Below are positions 1-20,830 of a stretch of DNA of 64,000 nt, one piece after another (within the stretch, counting starts at the first letter, position 1; every line of letters begins with the position of its first letter). Position numbers and translations under genes: made by a program. Under the pieces are notes generated by a model. That model made no database searches. It saw only the letters and a program-made list of their open reading frames with translations, and had not been told where the DNA came from. Source of the stretch: an uncultured virus (IMG/VR IMGVR_UViG_3300011215_000001) (taxonomy: Duplodnaviria > Heunggongvirae > Uroviricota > Caudoviricetes); the IMG/VR virus record IMGVR_UViG_3300011215_000001. One strand, given 5' to 3'.

Positions 1-173
1 CTTTCACTAATATCAATTATTTCCTCAAGTTCCAGTACAAGCTTTTCTTTAGTCGTGCTAAAAATCTGAGAAAACAAGTATGAAACCCTTGATACATTTC
101 GATGGAATTCTTTCATGCCTACCAAATTATCTAATTGATAAATCTTAATGTTTGTAACATTCTCAACTGACAT
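1..173 (-). CDS. hypothetical protein (partial, runs off window)
   Basis: AAGGGG RBS then ATG at 173; frame open to window edge (MSVENVTNIKIYQLD...). Confidence 0.6.
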   Translation of the reverse strand, partial: MSVENVTNIKIYQLDNLVGMKEFHRNVSRVSYLFSQIFSTTKEKLVLELEEIIDISE

Positions 174-200
174 ATTCAAAGCATCCCCTTGTTAGCAGAA

Positions 201-530
201 TCAGTATTGTAAATTCAATATATTTTTAACATATCTTACCTTTACATACTTAATTATACCCTTTTCATCTCTATATACAAATACTTGACTACCTTTTTTA
301 GCATTCCCCTTTAAATGATTTTCGTCAAAGGTTGAAACAAAGCTATAATTTTCTGTACTGCTTGTGTAAACTTCACCACTAACTGACATTACTGTTTCCT
401 CTGTCCTGCTCAATGTGAAGCTATAATAGTAGATACTATTCACACCATACAAGGACAATAACAAAATTGAGCTTCTTAATAATGGCTTCCATTTTTCAAT
501 AACATCTTTTACAGTAATTTGATGTCTCAT
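201..530 (-). CDS. hypothetical membrane-anchored protein
   Basis: 109 aa ORF, AAAGGTG RBS, one N-terminal hydrophobic stretch. Confidence 0.7.
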   Translation of the reverse strand: MRHQITVKDVIEKWKPLLRSSILLLSLYGVNSIYYYSFTLSRTEETVMSVSGEVYTSSTENYSFVSTFDENHLKGNAKKGSQVFVYRDEKGIIKYVKVRYVKNILNLQY

Positions 531-542
531 GTTATCACCTTT

Positions 543-815
543 TTATTCAGCTTCTGCTCCAATTGTAAATTTAAAATTGGATGTACTTGTTCCATACACT
601 GTTTTAGCGAAAAATTCAGATGTAAAAGTAACACTTGCTTCAAAGTTTAACGAACAATCACCATCAACTTTATCAATAACCAACTGCATATCAATAGGAG
701 AAGCATTCATTGACTCGCAAGCTTCATGAACTCGTTGTGTTGCAATTTCTTCAATTTTCCCATAGATAATTTTTTCGCCTTCTGTTATATTGCGATTACT
801 TCCTACTAATTCCAT
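543..815 (-). CDS. hypothetical early protein
   Basis: 90 aa, GAAGGGAAG RBS, downstream of motif copy 841-867. Confidence 0.75.
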   Translation of the reverse strand: MELVGSNRNITEGEKIIYGKIEEIATQRVHEACESMNASPIDMQLVIDKVDGDCSLNFEASVTFTSEFFAKTVYGTSTSNFKFTIGAEAE

Positions 816-866
816 ATGTATGACTTCCCTTCAAAATTTAAGGTATGTATCTAAGTAAAAATCACA

Positions 867-1634
867 CTACAATGTGTAATTTTTACCTTCAATATTTTGA
901 CCAGTTCCTTTTATGTGTGGTTTAATCCAAATTTTCTTTCCAGATTTATATTTACGCCAATGTCCACGAACATTCCATGATTCAGCATGTCTTTCGTATT
1001 CTATTTTAGATTCTAAAACAGAAGGATTTTTTATTATTTTGTGCGTTCTTTTAACTATTTTTGTAAATCGAACAACATTTTTATTTTTACTTTTTTTACC
1101 ACTGTTCTTTATTTTTTTACCAACTTTTTCTATTTTTTCCTCAGTCTCAACATTGTTTGTACTGTTAATATATAGAACTAGTTGCATAAATGTTCTAATC
1201 ATTTGAGCTTTATTTTGCATGTGTGCATCTTGTGAATCTCGATTCAAAATATCATCTTCACTTAAGTTCCACATGCTTTGCAATTCTTTGCTTGCTACAT
1301 AATACAAGTAGCTTTCAAAGTTCCCATTATGGAAATAGATATGCTGTTCAACATCTGACTTATCCAATTGTCTAAGGACACCTTTTCTAACTTCTTTAAC
1401 TGTTGTGTTAGAAACCTTTGCAATCCTTTTCATTTCTTCAATTAGAGAATCGTCTTCAACTGATTTTCTGTAATCATCTAAATTTGTTTTTAAGACAATT
1501 ACGATTTCACTAAAAGGAACTACTACTTCCTCGTTAGCAATCATTTCGTCCGTTAAATTTTCTGTTACCCATTTTTCAAGAAACTTTACATCGTTATCAT
1601 CGATGATAAATTTATCTACTGATTTATTGTACAT
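867..1634 (-). CDS. hypothetical phage protein with basic C-terminal VRGHWR motif
   Basis: 255 aa, AAAGGAG RBS; C-terminus WNVRGHWRKYKSGKKIWIKPHIKG, a motif type seen in phage proteins. Confidence 0.8.
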   Translation of the reverse strand: MYNKSVDKFIIDDNDVKFLEKWVTENLTDEMIANEEVVVPFSEIVIVLKTNLDDYRKSVEDDSLIEEMKRIAKVSNTTVKEVRKGVLRQLDKSDVEQHIYFHNGNFESYLYYVASKELQSMWNLSEDDILNRDSQDAHMQNKAQMIRTFMQLVLYINSTNNVETEEKIEKVGKKIKNSGKKSKNKNVVRFTKIVKRTHKIIKNPSVLESKIEYERHAESWNVRGHWRKYKSGKKIWIKPHIKGTGQNIEGKNYTL

Positions 1635-1665
1635 TTTTTGTTCTCCTTTCGTTATTATGTAAGGT

Positions 1666-1696
1666 AAAAGAGTGTGCGAAAATCACACACTCTTTT
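1666..1696 (-). terminator. intrinsic terminator overlapping promoter motif
   Basis: AAAAGAGTGTG...CACACTCTTTT inverted repeat just after the stop of 1705..2187. Confidence 0.65.
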
Positions 1697-1704
1697 AGGA
1701 AGTT

Positions 1705-2187
1705 TTATTTTAAACCTACATATTCGCCTTCATTATTATATCTTGCAGGATTAGCAGCAGGTATATGAAAACCATGCATTGAACCACTTTGCATAGCTAT
1801 CTCTTGTGCTTTTGTAACGCCTAATTCAGCATTTAATTCATCAACAGTTTTATTGTCTGGGTTTTGTATAACGAAATATCCAGATACATTTAGTTTTACT
1901 TTAACTACAGTTTCATCTATTGGGTGGATGCAATAACACATTTGAGGCAATCCATCATGGAAATCCCCTTTTTGCAATAAATCTGGTTCTGGTTCAAGTT
2001 CAATAATTTTTTCTCCAGTTTCCAAATTATATTCCCCTTCAAGTCCCTCAATATTATCACGCATATCTCTAAGTTGAGTGTAAGTTTTTTCAAGTTCTTT
2101 CCCTAAAGAAGAACTTGGAATTTTATTAAATTCCTCAACCTCATCCATTAATTCATTCAACATATCAACTAATTTTTCAGTATTCAT
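1705..2187 (-). CDS. hypothetical protein, mobile-element-type C-terminal domain
   Basis: 160 aa, AGGGGG RBS; C-terminal LPQMCY...LGVTKAQEIAMQSGSM..F.IPAANP..Y. Confidence 0.8.
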   Translation of the reverse strand: MNTEKLVDMLNELMDEVEEFNKIPSSSLGKELEKTYTQLRDMRDNIEGLEGEYNLETGEKIIELEPEPDLLQKGDFHDGLPQMCYCIHPIDETVVKVKLNVSGYFVIQNPDNKTVDELNAELGVTKAQEIAMQSGSMHGFHIPAANPARYNNEGEYVGLK

Positions 2188-2203
2188 ATTGCTTCCCCCT
2201 TAA

Positions 2204-2491
2204 TTAATCTCTAAACATTTCATTGTAATCTTTTCTATGTTTGTACAAAATCTTGCTAGCATCTCTGATACTATATTGAACAGAAATCGTATTGAAAGGT
2301 GTTGAATCTTTTTTGATTTCTCTAAAATAAATATTATCAAATGACTTTGTGTCCTTAGAAAACTCTATATATTCCCCTTCATCAATTAAAATAAGCAAGG
2401 TATTATTTACATCGACTTTTCTTAAAATTGATTCAGCATCAGACATGTTTTTAATTGTTGTTAGACTAGATGGTACTAAAAAAATATTCAT
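2204..2491 (-). CDS. hypothetical early protein
   Basis: 95 aa, AAGGAGG RBS, motif upstream. Confidence 0.8.
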   Translation of the reverse strand: MNIFLVPSSLTTIKNMSDAESILRKVDVNNTLLILIDEGEYIEFSKDTKSFDNIYFREIKKDSTPFNTISVQYSIRDASKILYKHRKDYNEMFRD

Positions 2492-2553
2492 CTATTATTA
2501 ACCTCCTTCTATAAAATAAGGTATTTTTAAGTTATGAAATCACACATAAAAGA

Positions 2554-2838
2554 TTACTTTTTTATCCTGTTCTCAAAAATAGATTTAGCGTTTTCATAAC
2601 TTAAATCGTAATCTCCACTATTAAAGCCACTGTAAGAAGTTTTAAATTCCCCAGTATTATAAAGAGTCCACACAGCCCAATTTTTCTCTGGTACTATGCT
2701 ATTTTCCCCTTTTTCAGCCATCACAATTGCATTTTTATTTGAGTCAAACCCTATCTCAATTGATTCAAGATTCATTCTTTCTTTAATCTGTGAAATAGTG
2801 TTAGTTATTTTTTGAAGTTCTTCAAAATTCAGTGTCAT
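2554..2838 (-). CDS. hypothetical early protein
   Basis: 94 aa, GCAGGT RBS. Confidence 0.7.
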   Translation of the reverse strand: MTLNFEELQKITNTISQIKERMNLESIEIGFDSNKNAIVMAEKGENSIVPEKNWAVWTLYNTGEFKTSYSGFNSGDYDLSYENAKSIFENRIKK

Positions 2839-2867
2839 AAATTTACCTGCTTTCTAGCTTATAGAAA

Positions 2868-3443
2868 CTATTTTATCATATCTACTAGTGTCTTAAGCCT
2901 ATTATTTTTGTGTAAAATATTTCTTTTTACACTACTCAGACTATAAATATTTGAGCGATAATCTAAAGTTTCGTTTTTTAAAACATCCTGTACGGTGTAA
3001 GTGAATACATCTCCACTTACAAATGAATTAAAGTCCTCAATTTCTGCTATCATATCCTCCCTAGCTCGTTCAAGCATATTTTTTGTGACTCGTTTCACTT
3101 CGTAACTTTGACGTATCTTCTCTTTGGTGGTAAATATCCAACCTATTTGAATGCTCCCCTGCTTAAATTCAAAAGTTGCAATACCCATGATAATCCCAGA
3201 CTGTTCATATATGTAAACAGGCAGTGAAAGAATCGATTCCCCTTGTGATACTTTTTTTAAAATATCTGTTTTCGTATTGAAATCATCATCGTCAACATTT
3301 ACATCTCCAAGATTATAAACTCTATGCCATGCAACAATTACCCCCACATGATTGTCATAGTATGTACGTGGTGACTCTGCATTTTCATCATAGTCTACAG
3401 TAACTTTAATATTTTCAACTTCAACAACAGTATAGTTTGTCAT
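2868..3443 (-). CDS. hypothetical protein (mobile-element family)
   Basis: start revised to MTNYT at 3443 after AAAGGATGG RBS; DYDENAESPR, LPVYIYEQSGI, QIGWIF motifs. Confidence 0.8.
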   Translation of the reverse strand: MTNYTVVEVENIKVTVDYDENAESPRTYYDNHVGVIVAWHRVYNLGDVNVDDDDFNTKTDILKKVSQGESILSLPVYIYEQSGIIMGIATFEFKQGSIQIGWIFTTKEKIRQSYEVKRVTKNMLERAREDMIAEIEDFNSFVSGDVFTYTVQDVLKNETLDYRSNIYSLSSVKRNILHKNNRLKTLVDMIK

Positions 3444-3525
3444 TATATACCATCCTTTATTATGTATTTCATCTTTGCAAAGATTAAGGTATGTACGACT
3501 CCAAGAATCACACATACCTTTGTAA

Positions 3526-3963
3526 TTAATTTCTTATAACTTTAAAGTTTTCATGTTTGAAAGGCTTGTTGCATTGTGCCTCATTAAATCCAAACGCTTT
3601 CAATACATCATGGCAACCTCTAGTACCTTCTCCATAGAATCCACCAGAAACACCATAGAAAACTATTGTGTAGCCCTCATGTGTTTTTACTGTAAGTTTG
3701 TAGCTATTTTTTTGGTAAATCATTTCAGCAGATTTTCCATTTAAGAATAAAAGTTTCTCTAATTGCTCTAAGAATTTAATATCATATCTTGTGATACCAG
3801 ATGTATTGAAAGTCATGTAAGCTTGAGAGTTTATATGTTTAACTCCACGCTCTAAATCTTTTTTCAAAGTTTTTAACTTAATACCTTCTCTTGAAGTGCT
3901 ACTGAAACTATACAAGTAGTAATATTTATTTTTTAAAATTGGTCTTTTCAATCTTTCCACCAC
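3526..3963 (-). CDS. hypothetical early protein
   Basis: up to 145 aa; SGGFYGEGTRG motif; true start uncertain. Confidence 0.75.
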   Translation of the reverse strand: MVERLKRPILKNKYYYLYSFSSTSREGIKLKTLKKDLERGVKHINSQAYMTFNTSGITRYDIKFLEQLEKLLFLNGKSAEMIYQKNSYKLTVKTHEGYTIVFYGVSGGFYGEGTRGCHDVLKAFGFNEAQCNKPFKHENFKVIRN

Positions 3964-4048
3964 CCTCTATGTATTAAGGTAAGTGTGTGAAACAATATCA
4001 CACACTCTTTTTCAAAAAGTTTATATTTCCTTGGAAATAACTTGATTA

Positions 4049-4411
4049 TTACCTCAAATATCCAACATGTTTTGTATCAACAGTGTCGTCTTCTTCATTA
4101 AATTTTGTTTCATGAAGTGGCATATTTCTTCCTTCAACAAACCATTTCGGAAGTGGGTAATCTGTTTTCGTTCTATCTATTTTTTCTTCACTACAATAAA
4201 CTTCTTCCCAACCATTTCCGTTATCTTGGAATTCTTTAAAAGTAATTCCATCACCATGATTGTAAGTTCTATCATCATTTTTTGTTGAATCAGTATAGAT
4301 AGTTACTCTTTGTTCTGGATATTCTTCAACAAATTTTTTCCCACCACTTACAATGCCACTATCAATTTGAACTCCATTTTTGTAAATCTTAGCGATAATC
4401 ATTCTCATCAT
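4049..4411 (-). CDS. hypothetical early protein
   Basis: GGAAGGA RBS, motif at 4427-4453; start at one of three clustered ATGs (4411, 4408, 4402). Confidence 0.75.
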   Translation of the reverse strand: MMRMIIAKIYKNGVQIDSGIVSGGKKFVEEYPEQRVTIYTDSTKNDDRTYNHGDGITFKEFQDNGNGWEEVYCSEEKIDRTKTDYPLPKWFVEGRNMPLHETKFNEEDDTVDTKHVGYLR

Positions 4412-4455
4412 TCCTTCCAATGTTTAAGGTATTTTAGAGTTAATAAATCACACAA

Positions 4456-4686
4456 TTATTTTTCTTCATAAAATCTTTCTAACATTTCCATTGCAATATG
4501 ATATTTAACACTTCCTAATGGGACAGTTCCAACATGATTACTTTTGTTTTCATGAAACAATTCACTTTGAAGTTTTCTAACTAAAGAATCTTTTTGTAAA
4601 GAACCTGCTTTCAATTCTTTATAAGCTTCTTTTAATTTTGCATCTGGTAAGTTTTTTATAACGTTATAAGTTCTTCCTTTTTTCAT
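4456..4686 (-). CDS. hypothetical early protein
   Basis: start revised to MKKGRTY after GGAGGA RBS. Confidence 0.75.
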   Translation of the reverse strand: MKKGRTYNVIKNLPDAKLKEAYKELKAGSLQKDSLVRKLQSELFHENKSNHVGTVPLGSVKYHIAMEMLERFYEEK

Positions 4687-4779
4687 TAGAAGTTCCTCCA
4701 ATGGTAAATAGTTCTTGTATTTATATAAGGTATTTGAGCATGGAAGAATCACACACTCAAATAAATAATTTTAAATAAT

Positions 4780-4974
4780 CTATTTACCTAGTTTATTGAA
4801 AGATTTAACTGCATCTTCCTTTTCCTCGAAATAATCAATCTCATCATAGTTCTGGACACCAAATTTATTAACGACTTTATCGAAAACTAACCTAATTTCA
4901 TTGTTCTTTCCTTCTTTAGAGTCAAGAACTTCAAACCGTTCTTTGTATGGCATACCTGCAAGAATGTAAGGCAT
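4780..4974 (-). CDS. hypothetical early protein
   Basis: 64 aa with GGGGAGGGG RBS. Confidence 0.7.
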   Translation of the reverse strand: MPYILAGMPYKERFEVLDSKEGKNNEIRLVFDKVVNKFGVQNYDEIDYFEEKEDAVKSFNKLGK

Positions 4975-5346
4975 AACTATCCCCTCCCCCCTTTCTCTAA
5001 TCTAAACTCTTTTACAAAACATCTTTGTTAAATTCTTTAAGAGTTGAGAATATTTTACTAGATTCTAGTGTTTTCTTCCATATCCCTTCTATAACTAAAG
5101 GTAGTTAACTAATGAAAAAACACACTTTTTTTTGATTTTTTTCCATCTTGGAACTAGTTAAAATATTATTTAAATTTATCCAAAAGAATTTTCCGTTAAA
5201 AAAGTTCTGCTTTTATTTAGCATTAGTAAAAAGACATCACGAACCAAAACCATTATTTATTTACATTTTGCTGAAATTCTAAATTTCAACACCAGTAATT
5301 TACTATAGTTTTAGTTCGTTATTTATAAATGAAAGATAGATTTTAT

Positions 5347-5823
5347 TTAGAGATTATATTTTTCTTTGTGATGCTCGTTAGCATATCCAAATGGGATATC
5401 AAACCATATTTTGTTATCAATCTGGCTACGGAATTCTGTTACATTTTGTTTGAATTCATAGCCCATTAACCACTTTAAAGAGATTGGATTTTTTAATACA
5501 TACAAATCGCTCTCATGACTATCAATTTCATTTTCCTCCATGCCTAAATCCAACAACTGCTCTTTAATTGTTTTCACAACCATTTTACTTTCATAGTTTA
5601 ATATTCCTTCCCATGATAACCATTCTGGCTTTTCATCATCTGCAAAGCTATTCCAAAGCTTTTTCATGACTTCAATCTGTTCCTTTTCGTTTTCAGCCCA
5701 TAAAGCATTTCTACTTCTGTTACCATTACCTAAATAATAATCACAATCACCTTGCATACGATTCAGTAATTGATACCTAAACTTTTCATCTGCTTTAAAA
5801 ATATCATATCCTGCCATTTTCAT
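5347..5823 (-). CDS. LPD11-like (large polyvalent protein-associated) domain protein, two domains
   Basis: FRYQLLNRMQGDCDYYLGNGNRS..LWA...EQIEVMKKLWNSF..DEKPEWL matches the LPD11 pattern as recalled; second domain IDSHESDLYV...WFDIPFGY. Confidence 0.75.
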   Translation of the reverse strand: MKMAGYDIFKADEKFRYQLLNRMQGDCDYYLGNGNRSRNALWAENEKEQIEVMKKLWNSFADDEKPEWLSWEGILNYESKMVVKTIKEQLLDLGMEENEIDSHESDLYVLKNPISLKWLMGYEFKQNVTEFRSQIDNKIWFDIPFGYANEHHKEKYNL

Positions 5824-5983
5824 TCGCTCCCTTTTTGAATGTCCATTCATTTTTTATCTTCAAATATTAAGGTATATTTGGTTGTGATAATCACACATTA
5901 GATTGTTTAATTTTATAACAAATGTTTATTATCTACATTTTAAATCATTATAACATCACTTTCTATGAAAATAAGCATGGTGC

Positions 5984-6457
5984 TTATTTCACAATTTCAT
6001 ACAAAGAAATCCAATGGGCTTCTTGATGGTCATATTCAACCTCATCAATACCTAACAAAATACCTAATTCATCACATTTGTAAATTTGGAAACCACAATT
6101 AGAAACTTCCTTTAGGTTATCAAGAATCCATTCTGAAATTGATAAAGGTTTCATATAAATTTTACTACATGGTGAATCATATGGAATTTCATCCATATCC
6201 TCTATTTCTTCAATAACTGCATAACTATCTTCATCTTCAATTAAACATGTAGGACAAAGTTTTTCACCATTTGAATCTTCTTCAATATCATCAACTTCTT
6301 CTTGAGAAAATTCTTCACTACAATTATTGCACTCAAATTTTGTTGTTGCAGGTGTTAGGACTTCAAGCCCTTCAAAGTTAGGATATAAACTTTCAACTAT
6401 TGATTGAGGTATCGATTTAAATTCTTTTTGAATCCATAAATCAATAACATTGTTCAT
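5984..6457 (-). CDS. acidic zinc-ribbon protein
   Basis: 157 aa, GGAGG RBS, CNNC...CPTC, very acidic. Confidence 0.8.
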   Translation of the reverse strand: MNNVIDLWIQKEFKSIPQSIVESLYPNFEGLEVLTPATTKFECNNCSEEFSQEEVDDIEEDSNGEKLCPTCLIEDEDSYAVIEEIEDMDEIPYDSPCSKIYMKPLSISEWILDNLKEVSNCGFQIYKCDELGILLGIDEVEYDHQEAHWISLYEIVK

Positions 6458-6584
6458 GTTTTTTCCTCCATTTATAATTTATGTAGTTTTTTCTATCTAT
6501 TATTAAAGGTAATCAATATATTGAAAGTCACACAATTAATTTATATTTTATCATTCCTTTCATACTTTATCATTTTTTCTCAAT

Positions 6585-6620
6585 TCAAAAAAGCATGTGA
6601 GGTTTCACATGCTTTTGAAA
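6585..6620. terminator. bidirectional intrinsic terminator
   Basis: AAAAGCATGTGA-GGTT-TCACATGCTTTT palindrome. Confidence 0.7.
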
Positions 6621-6990
6621 AAACAATATAGAATTTCACTTAATGTAACATAAGGTTACAAACGCCCAAGTTTGAAAATATTTACAAATAAGTATTTAAG
6701 AACAAAAAAGTTGTTCAAATGATGTGTTAAGAAGGTAATTAAAAAACTCCAATTATTAGGATTAAGAACATAGTGAACATGCGTTTGTTTTAATTAAAAT
6801 TTATAATTCCTATCTTTAATGAAAAAGTAGCAGTTTGACAGTCTGCAATTTCTTAACACATCATTTCAACATCTTTTAGAAATAGCCCCTCTAGCCTTTT
6901 GTTTCCCGACTCAACTAGAAGGACTACAATGAAAGTGAATTACTAAAACAAATTTTTAATAGTTTTGAAAATACTTTATTAATCATTTGC
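6590..6990 (-). ncRNA. candidate ~400 nt sRNA
   Basis: sigmaA-like TTGCAA-N17-TACAAT (7026-6998), no substantial ORF seen, 28 bp long-range stem 6706-6733/6850-6877, ends at terminator 6585-6620. Confidence 0.45.
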
Positions 6991-7029
6991 TTATGCTATT
7001 GTACTACCTAGATTTATATTTTGCAATAC

Positions 7030-7449
7030 TTATCCATAAACAACTTTTCCGAATAATGCATATTGAATAATGCAGTCTGCTGTTGTTGCATCTCCATATT
7101 CTAAATTGCTATCATGTGGACGGTGCAAGGCATTCAAACTAAAGCCATTTACAAGCTTTTCTAGCGTTAGTTCCCAGATTTCATCTGTTTCCTTTTCGCT
7201 GTCAGAAAAACGGATTGTCTTGCCATCTAACAGCATCTGAGTAGCCAAATCGCTCATGAATGATGATTCTGGTCTATCCTTCTTGAATTCTTCATCATCA
7301 TTATGGAAAGTAGCCCAGTAACCAATGCCACCTTCTAATCCATTACAAATAATAGTATTAATGTCCTTTGCTGTAAGTGGAATTTCTACCTTTGCTGTTC
7401 CTACTACTTTTTCTCTATTGAATTTCATCATAACTTTTTCAACTGCCAT
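7030..7449 (-). CDS. hypothetical early protein
   Basis: 139 aa, GAAGGGA RBS; GLEGGIGYWA and DATTADCIIQYALFGKVVYG motifs. Confidence 0.85.
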   Translation of the reverse strand: MAVEKVMMKFNREKVVGTAKVEIPLTAKDINTIICNGLEGGIGYWATFHNDDEEFKKDRPESSFMSDLATQMLLDGKTIRFSDSEKETDEIWELTLEKLVNGFSLNALHRPHDSNLEYGDATTADCIIQYALFGKVVYG

Positions 7450-7520
7450 TTGTCATCATCCCTTCTTGTTTATGTAGGTATCTGAGACATTTTAATTCAC
7501 ACAAATATTTTTGTGAGCTT

Positions 7521-7607
7521 TTAAGAATGCTCAAATGACACACTAATGATACTATAAATTGAATGGGGATTCTAATTTTATTTTAGTATGTCATTTCAAC
7601 TTCTTAA
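7521..7607 (-). repeat. conserved hairpin element (G.G mismatch family)
   Basis: TTAAGAATGCTCAAATGACA...TGTCATTTCAACTTCTTAA; similar to 8665-8717 and 6706-6877. Confidence 0.6.
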
Positions 7608-7657
7608 TTGTGAGGTAAATGTGTAACACAAATTCACACATTTACCTCACGAATATT

Positions 7658-8005
7658 TTATCTGCTTAATGCATCATATTCTTCTTGCGTTTCCTGCCTG
7701 TCATGAATTGCTAAAGGATACTTCGATATTTTAGAAAATCTCGAATCAGATGTACTCGCATAACTGCCACCAGACATATAGCCTATGCTTGTTGCATTTT
7801 TGTAAGGCTCGATATGTTTATATTCTCCATCAGCTAGATTTCTTATAACAAGTTTAACCAAATTTTCAGGAGGATTATTTTCATCGATATCAACAAATCC
7901 TTCTTCGTGAATTAATAATAATTTATCAAATTTTTCTGACACTCCATTATTAGAGCATCCTTTAAGTGATTCATTCTTGAATACATAGAGTGGTAATGCT
8001 TTCAT
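7658..8005 (-). CDS. hypothetical early protein
   Basis: start revised to MKALPLY; GCSNNGVS and GYMSGGSYASTSDSRF...PLAIHDRQE motifs. Confidence 0.85.
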   Translation of the reverse strand: MKALPLYVFKNESLKGCSNNGVSEKFDKLLLIHEEGFVDIDENNPPENLVKLVIRNLADGEYKHIEPYKNATSIGYMSGGSYASTSDSRFSKISKYPLAIHDRQETQEEYDALSR

Positions 8006-8090
8006 TGCTTCTCTTCCCTTCGAGTTTGTTTTAAGCTTGCTAAGTATTAAATTAGGTGTGCAATTGTGAATCACACACCTAATTTTATTT

Positions 8091-8624
8091 CTACAGTTTT
8101 ACATTATAGAAGTTTGAAACCTTTCTTAATGCTTCTCTTTCCGCACTGTTTAAAGAATTCAGTATATCTTTAACCTGTTTCTCAATCCCCATTAGCTGTT
8201 GTCGATATTCTTCTATTTTTTCATCAGAAAAATTATACGCTTGACTTTTCCCCTCAAGGATTGCAATTTGCTCTTCAATTAATGCAATTGTTTTTTCAGA
8301 GTCTAGTCGTTTTTCGTCTTCATGATAAACGAACCTAACGAAATGATTTGTTACATCTGGGTAAGCCCAATAAGAATCGTTATTTCTTCCACTTGTATAT
8401 TTTTCTGGACTGTTATTTGACCAGAATTTTAAACCATGTTTTTCAGCGTAGTCCCTACCCAGATACACACGAATTCCATTTTCTTGTAAGGCTTTTTCAA
8501 GTCTTACATTTACTACTCGATTTTCAAACTTGCGAATAGTAACAAAAGATTTTTTCATCCCATCGATAATTTCTTGAATTGCGTTTCTAGTTGCTAGGTT
8601 TAATGCTTGATTTTGACTTGTCAT
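8091..8624 (-). CDS. hypothetical early protein
   Basis: 177 aa, AAAGGTGG RBS. Confidence 0.8.
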   Translation of the reverse strand: MTSQNQALNLATRNAIQEIIDGMKKSFVTIRKFENRVVNVRLEKALQENGIRVYLGRDYAEKHGLKFWSNNSPEKYTSGRNNDSYWAYPDVTNHFVRFVYHEDEKRLDSEKTIALIEEQIAILEGKSQAYNFSDEKIEEYRQQLMGIEKQVKDILNSLNSAEREALRKVSNFYNVKL

Positions 8625-8664
8625 ATTTAAAAACCACCTTTATTATTTTAATATTTGTTACATC

Positions 8665-8717
8665 TTAAGATGTTCAAATCAGCTATTAAACTTTAATAAT
8701 TGATTTCAGCATCTTAA
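8665..8717 (-). repeat. conserved hairpin element (G.G mismatch family)
   Basis: TTAAGATGTTCAAATCA...TGATTTCAGCATCTTAA. Confidence 0.6.
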
Positions 8718-8768
8718 TTTTTAAGGTAGTTGTGTGAGAAATAATCCCACACAACTTTTTATTTAGTA

Positions 8769-8945
8769 TTAGATAGGTTGGTAAATATTGAGTCCCATTT
8801 TTATATTACCTATTCCAATTGCCTTATTGCCTAATGAACTTGCAATTACTGTTGATTTACCAGACTTCGAAGCTCCAAAGTTTTTATCTAAATCAACTTC
8901 AATAATAAGTTTGTTGTTCTCAATTTTAGTAGTAACGTTTTGCAT
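8769..8945 (-). CDS. small hypothetical protein (58 aa, missed by ORF track)
   Basis: AAAGGTGG RBS; MQNVTTKIENNKLIIEVDLDKNFGASKSGKSTVIASSLGN... Confidence 0.8.
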   Translation of the reverse strand: MQNVTTKIENNKLIIEVDLDKNFGASKSGKSTVIASSLGNKAIGIGNIKMGLNIYQPI

Positions 8946-9028
8946 AATTTATTCCACCTTTTCAGTATTTTATTTAGTATTCGTTATGTAATTAGGTAAA
9001 TGTGTGATGTCATTTCACACATTTACTT

Positions 9029-9247
9029 TTATGATTTCCCTGCAACACTTGTTATACTAGTTGTGTCTATTTCTATTACATCCCCATTGTAGTATTCAAG
9101 TAACGTTTTTCCCCAATTGTTTGGGCTTGGACAAACAATAACATTATGATATGTTTTATCCTTTGTTACAACGGTACAATAGCCTCCCCAACTTGTAAAT
9201 TGCTTTGCCACGCTCAACACTCCTATTCTTTTTTTGATGAGCTCCAA
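9029..9247 (-). CDS. hypothetical protein
   Basis: 72 aa ORF; real start probably further in, after AGGAG near 9225. Confidence 0.6.
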   Translation of the reverse strand: MELIKKRIGVLSVAKQFTSWGGYCTVVTKDKTYHNVIVCPSPNNWGKTLLEYYNGDVIEIDTTSITSVAGKS

Positions 9248-9672
9248 GAGCCTTTGTCGCCATTGTTGTGTATCAATAATTCATTTGGCTTGTAGTCTGG
9301 GAAAAATGTTTTTATATGCATGTATGCCAAATGATGTTCAATTGGTTGACTATTTGTTCTATCAATCACCATATTGTCATTAACATTTCTACTAACTCCA
9401 TCTTTACTATAACAATTTCTAAAGTAATTATAGCAAGTATGTTCCCATTCCTCTGTTAATTCCCCTTTATGTAGAGCCAATAATTTTTCTACTTCTGCTT
9501 TTACAGATGCAGGAACGTAATCACATGTTAATGCATGTCTAAGACTCATATCGCCAACAGTATAACGAGTTGAAACCTTTCTTTCTTTGACATGAAACTT
9601 ATGCTCTGCATCGTTAGGAGGATTAAGCATTGCCCCCATGCCATCTTTTACAATAATGAATTCTGTTTTCAT
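9223..9672 (-). CDS. hypothetical early protein
   Basis: 149 aa, AGGAGTG RBS, motif upstream. Confidence 0.8.
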   Translation of the reverse strand: MKTEFIIVKDGMGAMLNPPNDAEHKFHVKERKVSTRYTVGDMSLRHALTCDYVPASVKAEVEKLLALHKGELTEEWEHTCYNYFRNCYSKDGVSRNVNDNMVIDRTNSQPIEHHLAYMHIKTFFPDYKPNELLIHNNGDKGSWSSSKKE

Positions 9673-9783
9673 TTTTCAACACTCCTATTTAATTAGTAAG
9701 GTTGTTTAGTGGTGCGATATCACACATTTATTTTAGCAACCTATGAAGCAACTAAATTTTTAGTTGCTTTTAGATTTCTAAAA

Positions 9784-10164
9784 TCAGTCTTTTTTTGGGA
9801 AGAAAGCCAATGTAATAAGTCCATGTTCAGATTTGAATATCAAATCATACCATTCTGCATTGCTTACAAAGAATTTTATTTCAGTTACATGATTTAATAC
9901 TATGACACTGCCATTGATGTAAATTTGATTGACTCCATCATGAGAAATAAATTTTGTATCTGGGTATGTAACATTGCAAAGCTTTTCAACAACAGCGTGA
10001 CCACGTACCATATGAGAGCCATTATCAACAATTGCTTTAACAATTTTTATTGCTGTTTTAGTGTCAATTGTTATTCCGTCCTCACTAAGCGTTCTTGTGA
10101 TAGATTGCATGTTTACAGCTTCTAAAATATTGATTGTTGTTTGCATTTCTGACATGTATATCAT
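9784..10164 (-). CDS. hypothetical early protein
   Basis: 126 aa, AAAGGA RBS, motif upstream. Confidence 0.75.
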   Translation of the reverse strand: MIYMSEMQTTINILEAVNMQSITRTLSEDGITIDTKTAIKIVKAIVDNGSHMVRGHAVVEKLCNVTYPDTKFISHDGVNQIYINGSVIVLNHVTEIKFFVSNAEWYDLIFKSEHGLITLAFFPKKD

Positions 10165-10303
10165 CCTTTTCTATTTAATTTTGGTATATTATGTAAGGTA
10201 CTTATGAAGCACCAATTCACACACTAAATTTTAGTATGTCAATTTGTGGCTCATAATTTTAAAATAAAGTAGTGCGAAAATTCTCACACTACTTTATTGA
10301 GCA

Positions 10304-10447
10304 TTAGTAACGAACTACGCTTTTTATGAATATTAAAACCAGTATACAGAAAACTTGTGAGCCATAATAGATTACTAAATCTGAAATAGCCATTTCGTTA
10401 ATATCACAGCCAAAAAAGTATTGATTCACCGCATTTAAAATTTTCAT
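10304..10447 (-). CDS. small hydrophobic peptide (47 aa)
   Basis: AAAGGATGGG RBS; MKILNAVNQYFFG...QVFCILVLIFIKSVVRY; motif at 10491. Confidence 0.6.
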   Translation of the reverse strand: MKILNAVNQYFFGCDINEMAISDLVIYYGSQVFCILVLIFIKSVVRY

Positions 10448-10533
10448 GTTCTTAATCCCATCCTTTTTATAAATTTGTTCACGTTAATGAAGGTATGCAT
10501 GTGCCTGTCAATCACACACAATTTTTATATTTT

Positions 10534-10884
10534 TTAGAAGCAATATTTCAGTAAATCACTATTTAATTGAAAATCAATCATTCTGATTTCATTTTGACAT
10601 CTATCCCACAATAGCCAGTTCTCCGATTGTTTCCCCCCTCCTAAATGCAAAGGAATATATAAAGATTCTTTTGTATCTGAAATCTTTTGAGATACAATTT
10701 TAAGCATTGATTTAAATTGTACGAAATATGATTCAGCGTTTACCATTTCACCTTTGATAACATTTTCAATACAGTTGTTAGCGATATTTTTCAGACTCAA
10801 AATAATTTCGTTAGCACTTTTCCCTACATACCACTCACTTTCTTTAAATGTAATTGTTGAAACTTGAATTGTTGTTGTTGCCAT
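10534..10884 (-). CDS. hypothetical early protein
   Basis: start revised to MATTTIQ after AAAGGTGG. Confidence 0.75.
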   Translation of the reverse strand: MATTTIQVSTITFKESEWYVGKSANEIILSLKNIANNCIENVIKGEMVNAESYFVQFKSMLKIVSQKISDTKESLYIPLHLGGGKQSENWLLWDRCQNEIRMIDFQLNSDLLKYCF

Positions 10885-11033
10885 TTTTATTCCACCTTTT
10901 TTTATGTATTTGTGAGAATCACTCACACTATATAAGGTATTTGAAGTGTTTTGAATCACACAAAAAATTAATTTTTATTTTGTTGGTTCAAATTTAAAAA
11001 TGGCATGTGAAAAGTTCACACACCATTTCGAAT

Positions 11034-11267
11034 TTACATTTTTGCAATTTGTTTTAATAATTCATCTAATACTTTTGAGGAAATTTCTTTCTCTCTGCTT
11101 TGAGTGTCCTCGTTATCTCCTGTTTGTGCATCTATATAGTCGATAATAGAAGAAATAACTTCATCAAATTCCTCAAAATATTTATCCCCTAAAAGCCCAT
11201 CTTGACGATGTAAATGATAAATGCTTATTGCAAAAATCATAAGTTCTTCTCTTGTAAAACCATTCAT
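11034..11267 (-). CDS. small acidic protein
   Basis: 77 aa, AAAGGTG RBS, motif upstream. Confidence 0.75.
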   Translation of the reverse strand: MNGFTREELMIFAISIYHLHRQDGLLGDKYFEEFDEVISSIIDYIDAQTGDNEDTQSREKEISSKVLDELLKQIAKM

Positions 11268-11361
11268 TTTATCACCTTTTCCATGTTTGTATTAAGTAAG
11301 GTATTCCATCAAAACAAATTCACACATTCGAATACCACTTTTTTCATAATAACATAAAACA

Positions 11362-11568
11362 TTACATTAAAAAGTCAAGAATATCATTATCAAATTTGTA
11401 GGATGACAATTTTCTGTAATAGTTTTGGTCTTTATTGATTACATTTTCAACAAATGAATTAATAAGATTTAAAAGCTCATTATCTGTTATCCCTTGTGAT
11501 TTTTTAAGCTCGTATTCCTTTTTCATTTCTACTAGTTTTAATAAATTGTTTCTAGTAACTGTTTTCAT
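11362..11568 (-). CDS. hypothetical early protein
   Basis: 68 aa, AGAGGG RBS, motif upstream. Confidence 0.7.
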   Translation of the reverse strand: MKTVTRNNLLKLVEMKKEYELKKSQGITDNELLNLINSFVENVINKDQNYYRKLSSYKFDNDILDFLM

Positions 11569-11695
11569 TTCTCTATTCCCTCTTTCGTATGTACTTTGTT
11601 TCTATCTTACATTATGTAAGGTGTTTTTGCTTTTAAGAATCACACATTTATTTTAGAAAAATGAGCATAAAAAAAAGCGTGTGATAAACACACGC

Positions 11696-12004
11696 TCATT
11701 TTTTACTTTTGATTCCGTAAAGTTCCCAACCTGTCGAATCAAAAATACCTATGAATTTTTCGCCATGATGTACTTTCTTTTTGCCTTTCCACTCTTTCCA
11801 ATCTGAGTGACCAACAAAAATAACGTTTTCTGTTTCTGCTTTTGGCTCAAGGAAAAACATACCTTCATTTGTGCTGTACATGTAGAATATTTCTAATTCG
11901 ATATTCTGATTTTCTTCTACTGCTTTTTCTTTTGCGTTTACAAAGTCATTCCCAGTTGTGAATAATGATAATACTAAAGCGATTGTTAATAAGATTTTTT
12001 TCAT
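11696..12004 (-). CDS. secreted protein with Sec signal peptide
   Basis: GGAGG RBS; MKKILLTIALVLSLFTTGNDFVNA/KEK. Confidence 0.8.
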   Translation of the reverse strand: MKKILLTIALVLSLFTTGNDFVNAKEKAVEENQNIELEIFYMYSTNEGMFFLEPKAETENVIFVGHSDWKEWKGKKKVHHGEKFIGIFDSTGWELYGIKSKK

Positions 12005-12084
12005 GATAAATTCCTCCAAATTGTTTGATATTATTTAAGGTAAAACAGTTTTCTTAAATCACACATTTAATTTTAAAACTTTTT

Positions 12085-12264
12085 TTAATTATGCCATGCT
12101 TTATTGTAGCCAAATAATTTTGCTATCCTGTCAGCTTGTGAAATGATTTCAGATTCTACCTTTTCGCATGGTTGTATAGTATTTTCTTTGTAGCTTATTA
12201 GTGCATTGGCAACAGCTTGCATAATAGCTTCTTGTGCCTTTTCTTTGACTTCCTTTCTACTCAC
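12085..12264 (-). CDS. small hypothetical protein (59 aa)
   Basis: AAAGGTGG RBS, GTG start, (M)SRKEVKEKAQEAIMQAV...; motif at 12293. Confidence 0.7.
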   Translation of the reverse strand: MSRKEVKEKAQEAIMQAVANALISYKENTIQPCEKVESEIISQADRIAKLFGYNKAWHN

Positions 12265-12320
12265 AATAGAAACACCACCTTTCTACATAGTAAGGTATTT
12301 GAGTAATATAAAATCACACA

Positions 12321-12497
12321 TTAAAATTTAATGATTGTATAACCTTCATTGTCATTGCATAATTCAGCGTTGACATGCTTTACAGCTAATAGAATAGATG
12401 CACTTGAAAAACCTTTTATCATAAGTGAATTGAATCGAATTGCCTTTTTTGTACCCATTAATTGTTCGAATAAGTTTTTTAATTGTAATGTTTTCAT
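12321..12497 (-). CDS. small hypothetical protein (58 aa)
   Basis: AAGGGGG RBS; MKTLQLKNLFEQLMG...; motif at 12530. Confidence 0.65.
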   Translation of the reverse strand: MKTLQLKNLFEQLMGTKKAIRFNSLMIKGFSSASILLAVKHVNAELCNDNEGYTIIKF

Positions 12498-12643
12498 AGT
12501 CCTTGGACTACCCCCTTTTCATAAGCAATAGGTTGTTATGTGCTGTCAAATCACACATTTCCCCCATGAGAAATTATTTTCTGGTATACAATATTTGAAT
12601 TGTCTAACGATATTTCAAGGTATTGTTTATATACTTTATTGAG

Positions 12644-12674
12644 TATTCAAGGGGAAAATAAATCCCCTTGAATA
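12644..12674 (-). terminator. hairpin after sigma-like gene
   Basis: TATTCAAGGGGA...TCCCCTTGAATA inverted repeat. Confidence 0.6.
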
Positions 12675-12682
12675 TCTAAGCA

Positions 12683-13666
12683 TTAGTATGCTTTCATTTC
12701 GTTAAAGTAGTTGTTGAAATATGCCTCTACTTTTTGGAATTGTCTATCTAAGCGTGTCTTTTTACCTTCTACCTCTGCAAACGCTTGTTCGATTTCTCTT
12801 TTTCCATAACCTGCCATACGCATAACTGCAATTTTATATAGCTTGTCATTGCCTTTGAAAGCACTTTGTAAGTCCATAGCGACAACCTTCATATCATTTT
12901 CATCAAGGTTATTAAGTGCCTTTGCTACATCATACATAAGCGTGTCTGTATTCTTTGCTTCATCACTTGCCATTGCTTCAAATCTATCGTATGCATAGCG
13001 TTGAGCACGACTATTTTCAGTCTTTACAGCGTTCAATACATACCCCTTGAAAGCCTGTAATAACCCCTTGCGAATGTTTAGCTTGCCTTGCTTGTACTTC
13101 TCCATCATGTTATCCCTAGCAATGCAATATACGTCCTCTGGTGACAGGTATATATCATTGTATGCATAGCGTTTAGCCATTGAATAGAATACCTTGCGTC
13201 CATAATATAAGGCTTGGTATAGTGCTTCAAAGTCGTTACCGCCATTGTACACGTTAGGCATGATGCTCATTAGCTCGTTATCATTGAATACTTTACCGCC
13301 ATATTTGCGATTAAGAGAGAATAATTTGTCAATTAACGCTTGCATTTCCTCCGATACATTTTCACGCTTTTCATGTGCTTCTAGGTATTCTTGTGTAGTA
13401 TGATAAATTACGTCTTGCGTTTCTTCTATAGGTTGTACACTTGCTTGCTTCTTGCTTGCTTCTTTCTTTGCTTTAGCTTCTTTACGCTGTGTTTCAACCT
13501 CTATTATTAGAGGTAAATTATCAGCACCAAATCCCACACGTTTTTTGATTTCGGAATGGATTTCTTTCATTGCTAAAGATAGACATGCAGAGTAAACCCC
13601 TTCATATGTTTTAGCTCGCTTGTGTGCTTCTTGCATAATTTGTTTAGCTAGTAAATTTTTTGACAT
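12683..13666 (-). CDS. putative phage sigma70/ECF-like factor with N-terminal extension
   Basis: 327 aa; region-2-like LSPEDVYCIARDNMMEKY...AFKGYVLNAVKTENSR; region-4-like HTH LYKIAVMRMAGYGKREIEQAF..KTRLDRQFQKV; heads the motif-bearing block. Confidence 0.6.
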   Translation of the reverse strand: MSKNLLAKQIMQEAHKRAKTYEGVYSACLSLAMKEIHSEIKKRVGFGADNLPLIIEVETQRKEAKAKKEASKKQASVQPIEETQDVIYHTTQEYLEAHEKRENVSEEMQALIDKLFSLNRKYGGKVFNDNELMSIMPNVYNGGNDFEALYQALYYGRKVFYSMAKRYAYNDIYLSPEDVYCIARDNMMEKYKQGKLNIRKGLLQAFKGYVLNAVKTENSRAQRYAYDRFEAMASDEAKNTDTLMYDVAKALNNLDENDMKVVAMDLQSAFKGNDKLYKIAVMRMAGYGKREIEQAFAEVEGKKTRLDRQFQKVEAYFNNYFNEMKAY

Positions 13667-13857
13667 AATAATGAATCCCCATTCATTGTTATAGTAGTAG
13701 TCGAATGATAGACTACCCCATTATACACACATTACGCATAAATATTCATATGTATATAATGGGATATTCTAGGATGTCGAAAGATAGACAAACCAATCCC
13801 ATAACAAAAGTGGAAAAGATGCAAAATAAAACTAATTTACAAGTCACTACTTTATTA

Positions 13858-13872
13858 AGTTTTCAAAGAACT
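13858..13872 (-). promoter_or_regulatory. rrn-type boxA antitermination element
   Basis: minus strand AGTTCTTTGAAAACT, matching Bacillus rRNA boxA as recalled, ~190 nt upstream of the sigma-like start. Confidence 0.6.
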
Positions 13873-14271
13873 GTCAACTAATTAAATGGACAAATTTTCA
13901 ACTTACACTAGCTTCACAGCTAAAATGTATCTGTCATTTAACTTGTGTTAACTATAACATTAACAGTTTACACTTGTATATAGGTAATTTAATTTAAAGG
14001 AAAAACACGCATAAACGAGAATATTTTGTACATAACTTAGAAAATTTTCGTATGATGTGAGTTGAATATAAAAGCGTGTATAACTTGACACGACACGAAA
14101 ATTATGATAGAGAGTCAAATTTTATTATTCTAATATAGTAAAAAATTTTAAAAAAATATTAGCTTGACAAAATAAAAAAATTATGAAAGACTAAGATTTT
14201 TAATTGTAAAGCAAAAATACTTTACATCATTATTTACATTTATTTCCTTGTAATTTATTTACATTTATATT

Positions 14272-14340
14272 GATAATGATAATCATTTATAAATCGTAGT
14301 CATTACTATTTATTACTTAATGGTAATGATTCCTATTATC
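14272..14340. promoter_or_regulatory. two Fur-box-like sites
   Basis: GATAATGATAATCATTTAT (16/19) and GGTAATGATTCCTATTATC (14/19) versus GATAATGATAATCATTATC. Confidence 0.4.
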
Positions 14341-14794
14341 ATCATATAACATAGATTATATGAATAATTGTCCGTTCATATGTTCGTAGTATATAAGATA
14401 TAGGGGGGTGTTTTACAGGAAATATGTATAGTGCTAAAGTCCCAAAAGCCTAAACACACCCTCATCTCAACTCTGAATATTTCCAGAAACAGCCTATATT
14501 TTAGCAATATTTATCTTTTGCGACTCACTACACACTGCACTAAATTTTCATCAATCCAAAGCGATTTTCGCACATCCAGACATACATATATACGCACATT
14601 CTCATTTAGCTTGCTCTCATATCGCATAAATTGGCATAAAAAAATAGGCATACACTTTTCAGCATATACCTAAAATTTCTATTATAATTTCTTCTCAAAC
14701 TTTCCAGACTGCTAATATTCACTTACCATCATCCATTAACCTTATTCCAGTATATCATTATGGTAAAATGGATTAAAATTTGAATTATATAGCA

Positions 14795-15124
14795 TTAATA
14801 GTGAAATGAAAAAGGCTCTTTGGTTCTTTGAGTTCTTTCAAAATATGAAATAAACTCAATCAAATTCCTTTGCTGTTTACTCCATCTGGAGTCTAATTGA
14901 AATAATTCAGTTTGAGATAAGTTAACATCTATCTTGCCGAATTTATTATTATGCAAATTAGCTGTATAATAAGGCTCTGCATACTTGTTACTATAGCTTA
15001 TACATTCTATCTTAAAAGGTGTGTTCTTTTTAATTGTGGTATTTTCGATAGAATCAGACAGTGTTATTTCTACTTCAATATTCCTTGATAAATGAATTAC
15101 ATCTCCAATAGCATACAGATACAT
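14795..15124 (-). CDS. hypothetical protein
   Basis: likely start MYLYAIG after AGGAGAAAGAG. Confidence 0.7.
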   Translation of the reverse strand: MYLYAIGDVIHLSRNIEVEITLSDSIENTTIKKNTPFKIECISYSNKYAEPYYTANLHNNKFGKIDVNLSQTELFQLDSRWSKQQRNLIEFISYFERTQRTKEPFSFHY

Positions 15125-20254: not shown

Positions 20255-20830
20255 TTAAGAATCTACTCCATTTGGATTTGCTTTAAGTAATGCAGACATG
20301 TTTTTTCTGCGAGTAGGGGGAGGGGTAGTTTTTTGTTGTCTATTGCTTACTACAGGTTTTCTTTCTTGCTTCCCATCATCTTCTTTATCACTTTTTTCCT
20401 CTTTAAAGACCTCATGAGGGGTGCTGTCAACATGTGGTGCTACATAAGTAGGATTTGTCTGTTTTTTTTCTTCTTCTTGTTCTAACAATGATTGTTGAGC
20501 ACTAGCAGATGGACTCCAAGAATTTGTACGAACATTACTTGGAGTGTTATAAATACTTTGGTGTTGGAAGTGTTGAGCTTGAGCCTCTTGAACAGAAAAA
20601 TGTTTTTGTAATAAAAATTTTATTAAACCACTGAAAGAACTGTGTTCAAGTAGGGCATTTCGTAACAAGCCCATTTGTAGGCTATCATCTTTATTGAATG
20701 AAACAGCTTGAGTAATGTATTGACCCTTTGTAGTAGAATATAAGTCTTCTAGGTATTCATCTATATTGTCTGAGCTAAGTGGAATGTTTCTCCACTTAGC
20801 TTTTCTCCAGTCTGTATTCCTTTTTGACAT
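20255..20830 (-). CDS. ParR-like partition adaptor (RHH-like plus disordered tail)
   Basis: TAATG overlap with parM-like gene; ITQAVSFNKDD...SFSGLIKFLLQKHF followed by low-complexity tail. Confidence 0.65.
   Translation of the reverse strand: MSKRNTDWRKAKWRNIPLSSDNIDEYLEDLYSTTKGQYITQAVSFNKDDSLQMGLLRNALLEHSSFSGLIKFLLQKHFSVQEAQAQHFQHQSIYNTPSNVRTNSWSPSASAQQSLLEQEEEKKQTNPTYVAPHVDSTPHEVFKEEKSDKEDDGKQERKPVVSNRQQKTTPPPTRRKNMSALLKANPNGVDS

Follow-up and report, generated by a model that had tools for sequence, protein, structure and literature searches.

The window analyzed here is a 64,000-nt stretch of DNA from an uncultured virus (IMG/VR record IMGVR_UViG_3300011215_000001). It makes up about half of a 130,672-base contig, and the counts that we give for it are for the window only. 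It comes from a Sundance-like (SPbeta/Tsamsa-type) siphophage: its terminase is 71.7% identical to that of Brevibacillus phage Sundance and about 44% identical to those of Tsamsa-like phages, and its gene order matches that of Sundance. At the left of the window lies a block of small accessory genes, which may extend to the left of base 1. Apart from an LPD11 domain in 5347-5850 (E 1.2e-32), these genes are mostly unnamed by Pfam and PHROGs. A larger open reading frame (ORF) of 327 amino acids stands at the head of the block and, like every gene of the block, lies on the minus strand. Running through the block is an array of short bipartite repeats. An earlier note on this DNA had proposed that the repeats are promoters and that the head gene encodes a phage sigma factor that reads them. 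The features are listed in Table 1.

Table 1. Features of the window, with the basis for each or a remark.
Feature	Position	Strand	Basis or remark
Accessory block: about 27 small genes in one orientation, most without a known function	201-12497	-	ORF listing
Promoter-like array of 24 bipartite sites	841-13537	-	Pattern scan and weight matrix
27-nt cores, first half	841, 1662, 2519, 3487, 3977, 4427, 4728, 5099, 5870, 6507, 7476, 7613		Starts given on the + strand
27-nt cores, second half	8724, 8994, 9699, 10196, 10491, 10935, 11299, 11619, 12038, 12293, 12530, 13511		Starts given on the + strand
Fully palindromic copy	7613-7647	both	Also yields a weaker promoter-like site on the + strand
Motif copy inside the sigma gene	13511-13537	-	In a 23-residue segment absent from P0003
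Head gene, 327 amino acids, divergent sigma70-family (ECF-like sigma2+sigma4)	12683-13666	-	Fold and homologues
N-terminal helical domain (hairpin), residues about 1-44	13535-13666	-	Extra to sigma2+sigma4
Sigma2-like domain, residues about 138-234	12965-13255	-	8-62% identity between relatives
Sigma4-like helix-turn-helix domain, residues about 253-327	12686-12910	-	C-terminal
Terminator-like inverted repeat directly past the sigma gene	12644-12674	-	Read from sequence; overlaps an operator-like copy
SigmaA-type promoter candidate of the sigma gene, TTGACA-N17-TAAAGT	13849-13877	-	Read from sequence
Operator-like repeat RCYnAA(T/G)AAAGTA over the sigmaA-type promoter	13848-13860	-	Pattern scan
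Further strict copies of the operator-like repeat	12632-12644, 10290-10302	-	
Further strict copies of the operator-like repeat	+24474, +25482, +26810, +28678, +38758		
Sundance-terminal-repeat-like region	14130-14455	-	Conserved TCCTGTAAA..CCCCCC block at about 14403-14420
Tyrosine-recombinase-like gene	23277-24389	-	HxxR replaced by HSIKK/HSFKK
Second gene annotated "sigma factor" (phrog_5767, E 1.5e-74)	26864-27979	+	PHROGs; main rival reader

The earlier note had described 24 same-strand copies with an invariant 16-nt spacer and none beyond 14 kb, and all of this held up. The note's strict pattern has 23 matches on the plus strand of the window and 0 on the other strand; a variant with ACACAC at 5099 brings the total to 24, in the range from 841 to 13511-13537. 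Read on the minus strand, the element is (T)GTGTGA(TT)-N16-TACCT(TA). When spacers of 10-23 nt were compared in positions 1-14000, a spacer of 16 nt gave 23 matches and every other spacer gave 0-1. The spacer is constant in length and free in sequence. By chance, a mean of 0.03 matches would be expected (maximum 1 in 300 order-3 Markov sequences; means of 0.03-0.07 across controls). With a weight matrix, the 24 sites score 19.4-28.8, and the best other site anywhere in the window scores 13.7. A reading of the motif as a CRP-like palindromic operator was ruled out, because the arm spacing varies from 3 to 7 nt. A scan of IMG/VR with the window's exact 16-base pattern found 14 stretches with a single match each and no array, and blastn of positions 7000-14800 against phages gave no match. 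Four of the eight listed sequencing runs cover part of the block (shares of 0.32, 0.26, 0.11, and 0.06), all as contigs; the single RNA run among the sequencing runs is contigs only. In one contig of run X2 (depth 3.7), positions 1695-2204, a whole gene without its own site, are replaced by 15 other letters.

The sites are laid out as promoters would be. A pyrimidine-purine step lies at motif positions 35/36 in 21 of the 24 sites and in 80 of 102 sites pooled over six phages (the window and the five relatives described below), which is the highest count among positions 30-40 (runner-up, 52). We infer that +1 is motif position 36, 8-9 nt past TACCT. With this start, TACCT would span -13 to -9 and TGTGTGA would span -36 to -30, and there is an A at about -43 in 22 of 24 sites and at about -52 in 20 of 24. 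Such spacing is the geometry of the sigma70 family, with UP-like contacts. For 21 of 24 sites, a Shine-Dalgarno (SD) sequence and an ORF follow within 140 nt of the putative +1 (median leader, 32 nt). Among the 27 listed block ORFs, 22 have their own copy of the motif (one of them has two) and five have none; the remaining copy is inside the head gene. The genes downstream of the head gene are small unknown ORFs with sites of their own. The earlier note's figure of about 30 genes becomes about 27 in the window.

The head protein had been said to contain segments like sigma region 2 and the helix-turn-helix of region 4, and comparison of an AlphaFold model with those regions was set beforehand as a check. 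The model has two helical domains and a low-confidence linker (predicted local distance difference test [pLDDT] of 59 for the full model and 75 when trimmed). In structural alignments against 48,161 chains, sigma factors or sigma-containing entries took ranks 1-19 with the full model and ranks 1-16 with the trimmed model. The sigma2 part aligns with RpoE (5uxx) with Z 9.6 and a root-mean-square deviation (rmsd) of 2.6 Å over 84 residues, and the sigma4 part gives Z 6.0-7.0 (versus 3mzy, Z 7.0 and rmsd 3.1 Å). As modeled, the head protein is a pair of sigma2 and sigma4 domains like those of the extracytoplasmic function (ECF, group 4) sigma factors, so the sigma fold came out as proposed. We also predicted the complex of the head protein with residues 235-320 of beta-prime from B. 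subtilis, as a stand-in host. This complex scored 0.55, versus 0.00 for the best control, with contact agreement between runs of at least 84% and partner pLDDT of at least 74. The mark for this score was reached by 116 of 157 solved pairs and 2 of 215 mismatched pairs, and 18 of the 157 solved pairs and both of those mismatched pairs scored at or below 0.60, so 0.55 lies in the weak range; it may also reflect the predictor's memory of similar solved complexes.

By sequence, the protein is divergent. Direct searches found only the protein itself, with no match in phages and none in IMG/VR, and a profile-free search of representatives yielded one true homologue, P0003. (Another match, P0002, was dropped as a spurious repeat-protein match.) In the Atlas, residues 100-327 group with sigma-70-named and unnamed clusters (0.96). 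The Sundance-type homologue has a sub-threshold match to TIGR02985 (NCBIfam, E 0.0091), and in the whole Sundance genome the sole match to Sigma70_r2 (PF04542) is the syntenic head gene, gp193 (E 5.8e-4, under the cut-off). When three complete relatives were searched with Sigma70_r2, the Sundance head gene alone matched. BLASTP of the window protein against gp193 was not significant, and we consider them kin because of synteny, the sigma4 motif, and profiles. That motif is in the sigma4-like domain, in which a K, an I, and R-x-D-R are invariant in all seven aligned homologues.

Co-occurrence of the motif and the gene in relatives was another check set beforehand, and the two do occur together. 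Five relatives have a homologue of the head gene at the same block position: Sundance, G001 (the same element as a record titled P. alvei plasmid pPAV141, counted once), G007 (a P. agilis contig), G003, and G010, which was found via a neighboring gene and not via the sigma. Each has its own array on one strand with a 16-nt spacer and 13-21 copies (Markov means of 0-0.23). GTGTGA-N16 is kept in all six phages, and the -10 word varies: TACCT in the window, TACAT in Sundance (15 copies), TACAA in G001 (21 copies, one of them TATAA), TAYAA in G007 (15 copies), CATAG in G003 (13 copies), and TATAA/TATAG in G010 (14 copies). A table of exact-word counts by block is nearly diagonal: exact TACCT occurs 21 times in the window and once in G010, TACAT is found in Sundance only, and CATAG is found in G003 only. 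The invariant R-x-D-R of sigma4 matches the fixed -35. The sigma2 of G010 is 58-62% identical to those of G001 and G007, and its -10 is TATAA, as in G007; the three genomes with sigma2 at this level of identity share a TAYAA -10. Homologous block genes carry the resident word of their genome. For example, the family of window gene 7030-7449 has TACCT in one genome, TACAT in a second, and TAYAA in a third, which may be due to vertical co-evolution.

The part of the head gene that precedes the sigma core differs among these phages. The N-terminal helical domain is common to the window protein, P0003, and the homologues from G001, G003, G007, and G010 and is absent in Sundance; a weak lead links it to small proteins of phages (one cluster, score 0.81, with PF07410 on 21% of it). 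In the window, the internal motif copy falls between this domain and the sigma core, and we saw no good SD sequence for it. As a speculation, it could be a positive-feedback promoter for a shorter isoform. Cognate sites lie upstream of the sigma gene in Sundance, G003, and G007, and we saw none in G001 or G010; the window's sigma gene has a weak variant site upstream besides the good copy inside it.

Three nearer outgroups (terminase 54-57%), namely G002, pPLP3, and G008, are without the head sigma. In the same block, G002 has 14 TTGAC-type promoters, pPLP3 has no array, and G008 has a different repeat. Most of the TTGACA-type promoters of G002 (about 69200-82400, L082-L083) have a common TAACTAAATATG-like word in their spacers, and each gene there probably has its own operator. 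In two host chromosomes, the motif occurs 13 and 16 times outside the phage contig, versus 21 and 20 for a reversed-pattern control, so these chromosomes are not enriched for it. The -35 is GTGTGA in all six phages and is not TTGACA-like. The earlier note had not recognized the consensus from host sigmas, and the consensus is non-host by these comparisons. The repeat in G008 (a Siminovitchia prophage that belongs to the same broad group, contig 157, 121236-141639, L097-L098) consists of about 19 copies of TAACAG-N11-TATC(A/G)C before small genes. Elsewhere in G002 (L082, 9603-11687), the translated ORFs have a repeating pattern that hints at a short array of DNA repeats, and two ORFs beside it presumably encode TnpB/Cas12f-like proteins.

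Upstream of the head gene, the sigmaA-type promoter candidate is overlapped by an operator-like repeat. Strict copies of this repeat number 8 in the window, 25 in Sundance, 11-13 in the G001, G007, and G010 stretches, and 1 in G003; it is absent from the G002, pPLP3, and G008 stretches, and a reversed control gave 0-1. The repeat overlaps sigmaA-like promoters of several core genes, and with 0-2 mismatches allowed, a copy lies in the sigmaA-like promoter upstream of the head gene in all six phages. The tyrosine-recombinase-like gene of the window has an altered HxxR motif, as do its homologues (7 of 7), and a second recombinase at 44160-45158 keeps HDLRH. By analogy to MrpR, a recombinase-fold repressor that acts on a repeated element, we consider the first of these genes a candidate master repressor of the operator-like repeat; there was no sequence match between it and solved MrpR. 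Between the block and the rest of the window is a region that resembles the Sundance terminal repeat, so the block is probably at one end of the packaged DNA and read inward. The window contains partition-type genes, and there are relatives whose records are titled as plasmids, which suggests that this phage has a plasmid-like prophage. The operator-like repeat, the probable position at the genome end, and the lineage-specific -10 codes go beyond the earlier note.

We consider it probable that a phage sigma factor, once released from repression, drives about 23 near-monocistronic promoters. The fold, the geometry, the co-occurrence, and the absence of the motif's enrichment in hosts all support the proposal of a phage sigma with its own promoter code. 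In the plasmid-like prophage state, a repressor (the candidate being the recombinase-like gene product) would bind the operator-like repeat in the sigmaA-type promoter of the sigma gene. Upon infection or induction, host sigmaA would transcribe the sigma gene, and host core RNA polymerase carrying the phage sigma would use the repeats as promoters throughout this terminal block, where almost every gene would have one. The sigma4 helix with R-x-D-R would read the conserved GTGTGA -35, and the fast-evolving sigma2 would read the lineage-specific -10. A cognate site at or in the sigma gene could give positive feedback. At many junctions, the -35 also serves as an arm of a hairpin, and this hairpin probably terminates the transcript that arrives from upstream.

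Several results weigh against this reading. The Z scores of 6-9.6 are middling for helical domains; Foldseek with the head-protein models gave nothing at E < 0.001, although its top rows were nearly all sigma chains; and the window protein is without a sigma family in Pfam, PHROGs, and NCBIfam. All six motif-bearing genomes belong to one clade (terminase 68-92%), so their presence/absence pattern amounts to about one independent event. A test of 35 records speaks in favor (the 3 with the sigma had 13-16 generic matches on one strand, and the 32 more distant records without it had 0-3 in all), but the profile contained rows or close kin of two of the three positives, and many of the negatives are fragments. 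In G001, 21 sites persist although the head gene is interrupted, close to its N-terminal part, by what looks like a frameshift; the ORF for the sigma core is intact. The remaining points against it concern which protein reads the promoters. About half of the contig is outside the window, and other readers could lie there. Also, in Mantel tests of -10 distance versus protein divergence across the six genomes, the -10 correlates with sigma2 (rho 0.57, p 0.008) and sigma4 (rho 0.64, p 0.011), but a second gene correlates equally (rho 0.66, p 0.003), and sigma2 is not significant if only unseeded positions are used (rho 0.34, p 0.135). Terminase, Rep, and the recombinase-like gene showed no significant correlation with -10 distance.

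This second gene is annotated as a sigma factor in PHROGs, and its conserved product (371 amino acids, with a C-terminal four-cysteine motif) is encoded in all six motif-bearing genomes. The promoters could thus be real and be read by this protein, or by another phage factor or polymerase outside the window. Because the second gene tracks the -10 as well as the head gene does, the covariation test does not pick the reader. However, Sundance, G003, and the TAYAA group differ in their -10 words, and while their copies of the second gene are 64-70% identical, their head sigma2 domains are 18-35% identical. The second gene is also kept in G002 (34%), which has neither the array nor the head sigma; comparison with Pfam, NCBIfam, PDB sequences, and profiles gave it no sigma2 match; and it is 13 kb away from the block, at the head of the structural arm. 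The Sigma70_r2 match among the complete relatives is to the Sundance head gene and not to this one. A search for a late-gene promoter word for the second gene found none (that search revealed the operator-like repeat), and a search of the three complete relatives for the RdRP family was blank, but no control matched either. We favor the head gene as the source of the reader: only this gene is lacking wherever the array is, and it has the sigma2 fold, sits at the block, and varies far more than the second gene. A different reader seems improbable to us.

In another explanation that we considered, a weak -10 is recognized by a sigma of the host (sigmaA or a different one), with the head protein acting only as a -35-binding activator or a sigma-remodeling factor. 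The -10 with its next base fits TAnnnT in 19 of 24 window sites and 15 of 15 Sundance sites (as TACCTT and TACATT), which counts against a new specificity; TATAA(C) is one base off TATAAT, and the sigma4-like part alone resembles LuxR-type helix-turn-helix domains. But the T at -7 of sigmaA promoters is kept in few sites of G001 (6 of 21), G007 (2 of 15), and G010 (1 of 14), as well as in 6 of 13 sites in G003, whose -12 is C. Tight, genome-specific -10 words are not explicable by an invariant host sigma, the head protein retains a sigma2 fold, and the host chromosomes lack enrichment for the motif. A host sigma as the reader seems improbable to us as well.

Alternatively, the repeats might serve chiefly as operators or as junctions for termination or recombination (PeSL-like or att-like), and not as promoters of new specificity. 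In the window, 10 of 24 sites have a hairpin that runs through the -35 (mean 1.6 and maximum 5 after shuffling), as do 7 of 14 sites in G010 (mean 1.8 and maximum 4 after shuffling). When G001 and G007 are compared, 7 of 22 ends of homology are at motifs, versus 2.5 expected if uniform, and one cassette has been replaced between two motif copies. But hairpins are at the chance level in Sundance (1 of 15) and G003 (3 of 13) and near it in G001 and G007, with varying loop lengths, and the spacer is sequence-free. In other pairs of genomes, 1 of 11, 3 of 15, 1 of 6, and 1 of 4 homology ends are at motifs, which is the chance level, and the uniform null is generous, since breaks naturally tend to fall between genes. 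The constant spacing, the bias to one strand, the pyrimidine-purine step, and the SD position are features of promoters, and use as junctions can coexist with promoter function. We regard this alternative as very improbable. PeSL-like exchange at the repeats is possible, and the suggestion that promoter-gene units are modular fits the one pair and finds chance levels in the four others, which leaves it weakly supported. The fully palindromic copy is directly past the stop of 7658-8074, the position of a terminator. Terminator-like hairpins on the GTGTG word without the -10 half also occur on the minus strand at 10270-10300, 11000-11030, and 11670-11700; these are possibly decayed or ancestral forms of the junction element.

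If a phage sigma reads the array, a broader proposal can be made, which we put forward tentatively and consider rather doubtful as a whole: that the promoter codes of Sundance-like phage-plasmids evolve to be orthogonal to one another. Against a constant -35 and sigma4, sigma2 and the 13-24 -10 boxes of each genome would change together. The accessory block of a lineage (possibly with anti-defense or host-takeover functions) would be closed to the host and to a co-resident relative, an incoming gene would have to take the resident code, and one operator at the sigma gene would replace the per-gene operators that are apparent in the sigma-less G002.

The analysis predicts the regulon and the promoter code of a sigma family that is unnamed in the profile libraries searched. 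The natural series of -10 words (TACCT, TACAT, TACAA, TATAA, and CATAG) on a fixed -35 is a test set both for how sigma2 reads the -10 and for the way in which an entire regulon would change along with its sigma. Because Sundance is a cultured phage, this should be easy to test. In each phage, the sites also point to about 25 small, co-regulated genes that are candidates for an early role in interaction with the host, and the sigma-promoter pairs could serve as orthogonal expression switches in Bacilli.

Other features of the window and its relatives are as follows. An actin-like gene (ALP_N, E 3.6e-15) and a small partner lie at 20255-21810 on the minus strand; at this place, Sundance and G003 have a ParA-like pair and G001 and G007 have an actin-like pair. 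Eight tRNA genes are clustered at 29516-30504 on the plus strand, and one of them (29894-29968) has an unassigned four-base anticodon call. In pPLP3 (L079), the equivalent block is headed by an ArdA antirestriction gene (29438-29941 and 24093-24416 are ArdA/Cas8c loci) and also has a short ORF annotated as Cas8c, hinting that blocks of this kind carry anti-defense cargo.

Phage and plasmid sigma regulons are known (SPO1 and SigN), and we did not find this sigma family with lineage-specific -10 codes in the literature; no description of the motif or the family turned up in a search of the main text of mostly open-access papers. The system would work like SigN and the SPO1 sigmas and is laid out like the PeSL regions, but by its promoter words it belongs to none of them. 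The Jenst/SecTim467/Basilisk motif, a repeated promoter-like motif of Brevibacillus phages, is absent from the host and was proposed to be the target of a phage sigma (Berg et al. 2016, PMC4909266). That motif differs from the window's array: it lies ahead of replication genes and, according to the paper, does not occur in Sundance. The Sundance array is not described in the portions of that paper examined, nor is gp193 (a "hypothetical protein"). The PeSL cassettes of T4-like phages are repeated elements before single small genes in hypervariable regions and are proposed exchange points (PMC4122927). Like the window's sites, they are composite repeats followed by an SD sequence and the start codon of a single small gene. 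However, PeSL promoters are sigma70-like or Mot-type with a stem-loop upstream, whereas the window's consensus is non-host and its hairpin, where present (in a minority), contains the -35; exchange of cassettes, proposed for PeSL, is only weakly indicated for the window's repeats. In SPbeta, MrpR, a recombinase-fold protein without catalytic residues, represses via the repeated SPBRE in promoters (PMC10516654). The recombinase-like gene and promoter repeat of the window are like this by analogy, and they differ in that the gene has no sequence match to solved MrpR. In SPO1, the phage sigmas gp28 and gp34 redirect host RNA polymerase after a sigmaA-dependent first step (PMC13401047; 10.1101/2021.11.12.468384). 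These serve middle and late genes, with early genes read by host sigmaA, whereas in the window the sites would serve an accessory block at the probable genome end of a temperate phage-plasmid. Finally, SigN (ZpdN) of B. subtilis plasmid pBS32 is an element-encoded, weakly ECF-like sigma whose gene has a repressed sigmaA promoter and an autoactivated promoter and whose regulon is on the element only, with no chromosomal promoters (PMC6751061). Its promoter words differ (TTTACG and GATA(TA) in the table rows, versus GTGTGA-N16-TACCT), its repressor is host LexA, and its targets are nucleotide metabolism and replication operons, where the window has an accessory block with nearly one putative promoter per gene. 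By description, the two systems would be alike in having an element-encoded ECF-like sigma and a private regulon, and the window's sigma gene may likewise have a repressed sigmaA promoter together with an autoregulatory one.

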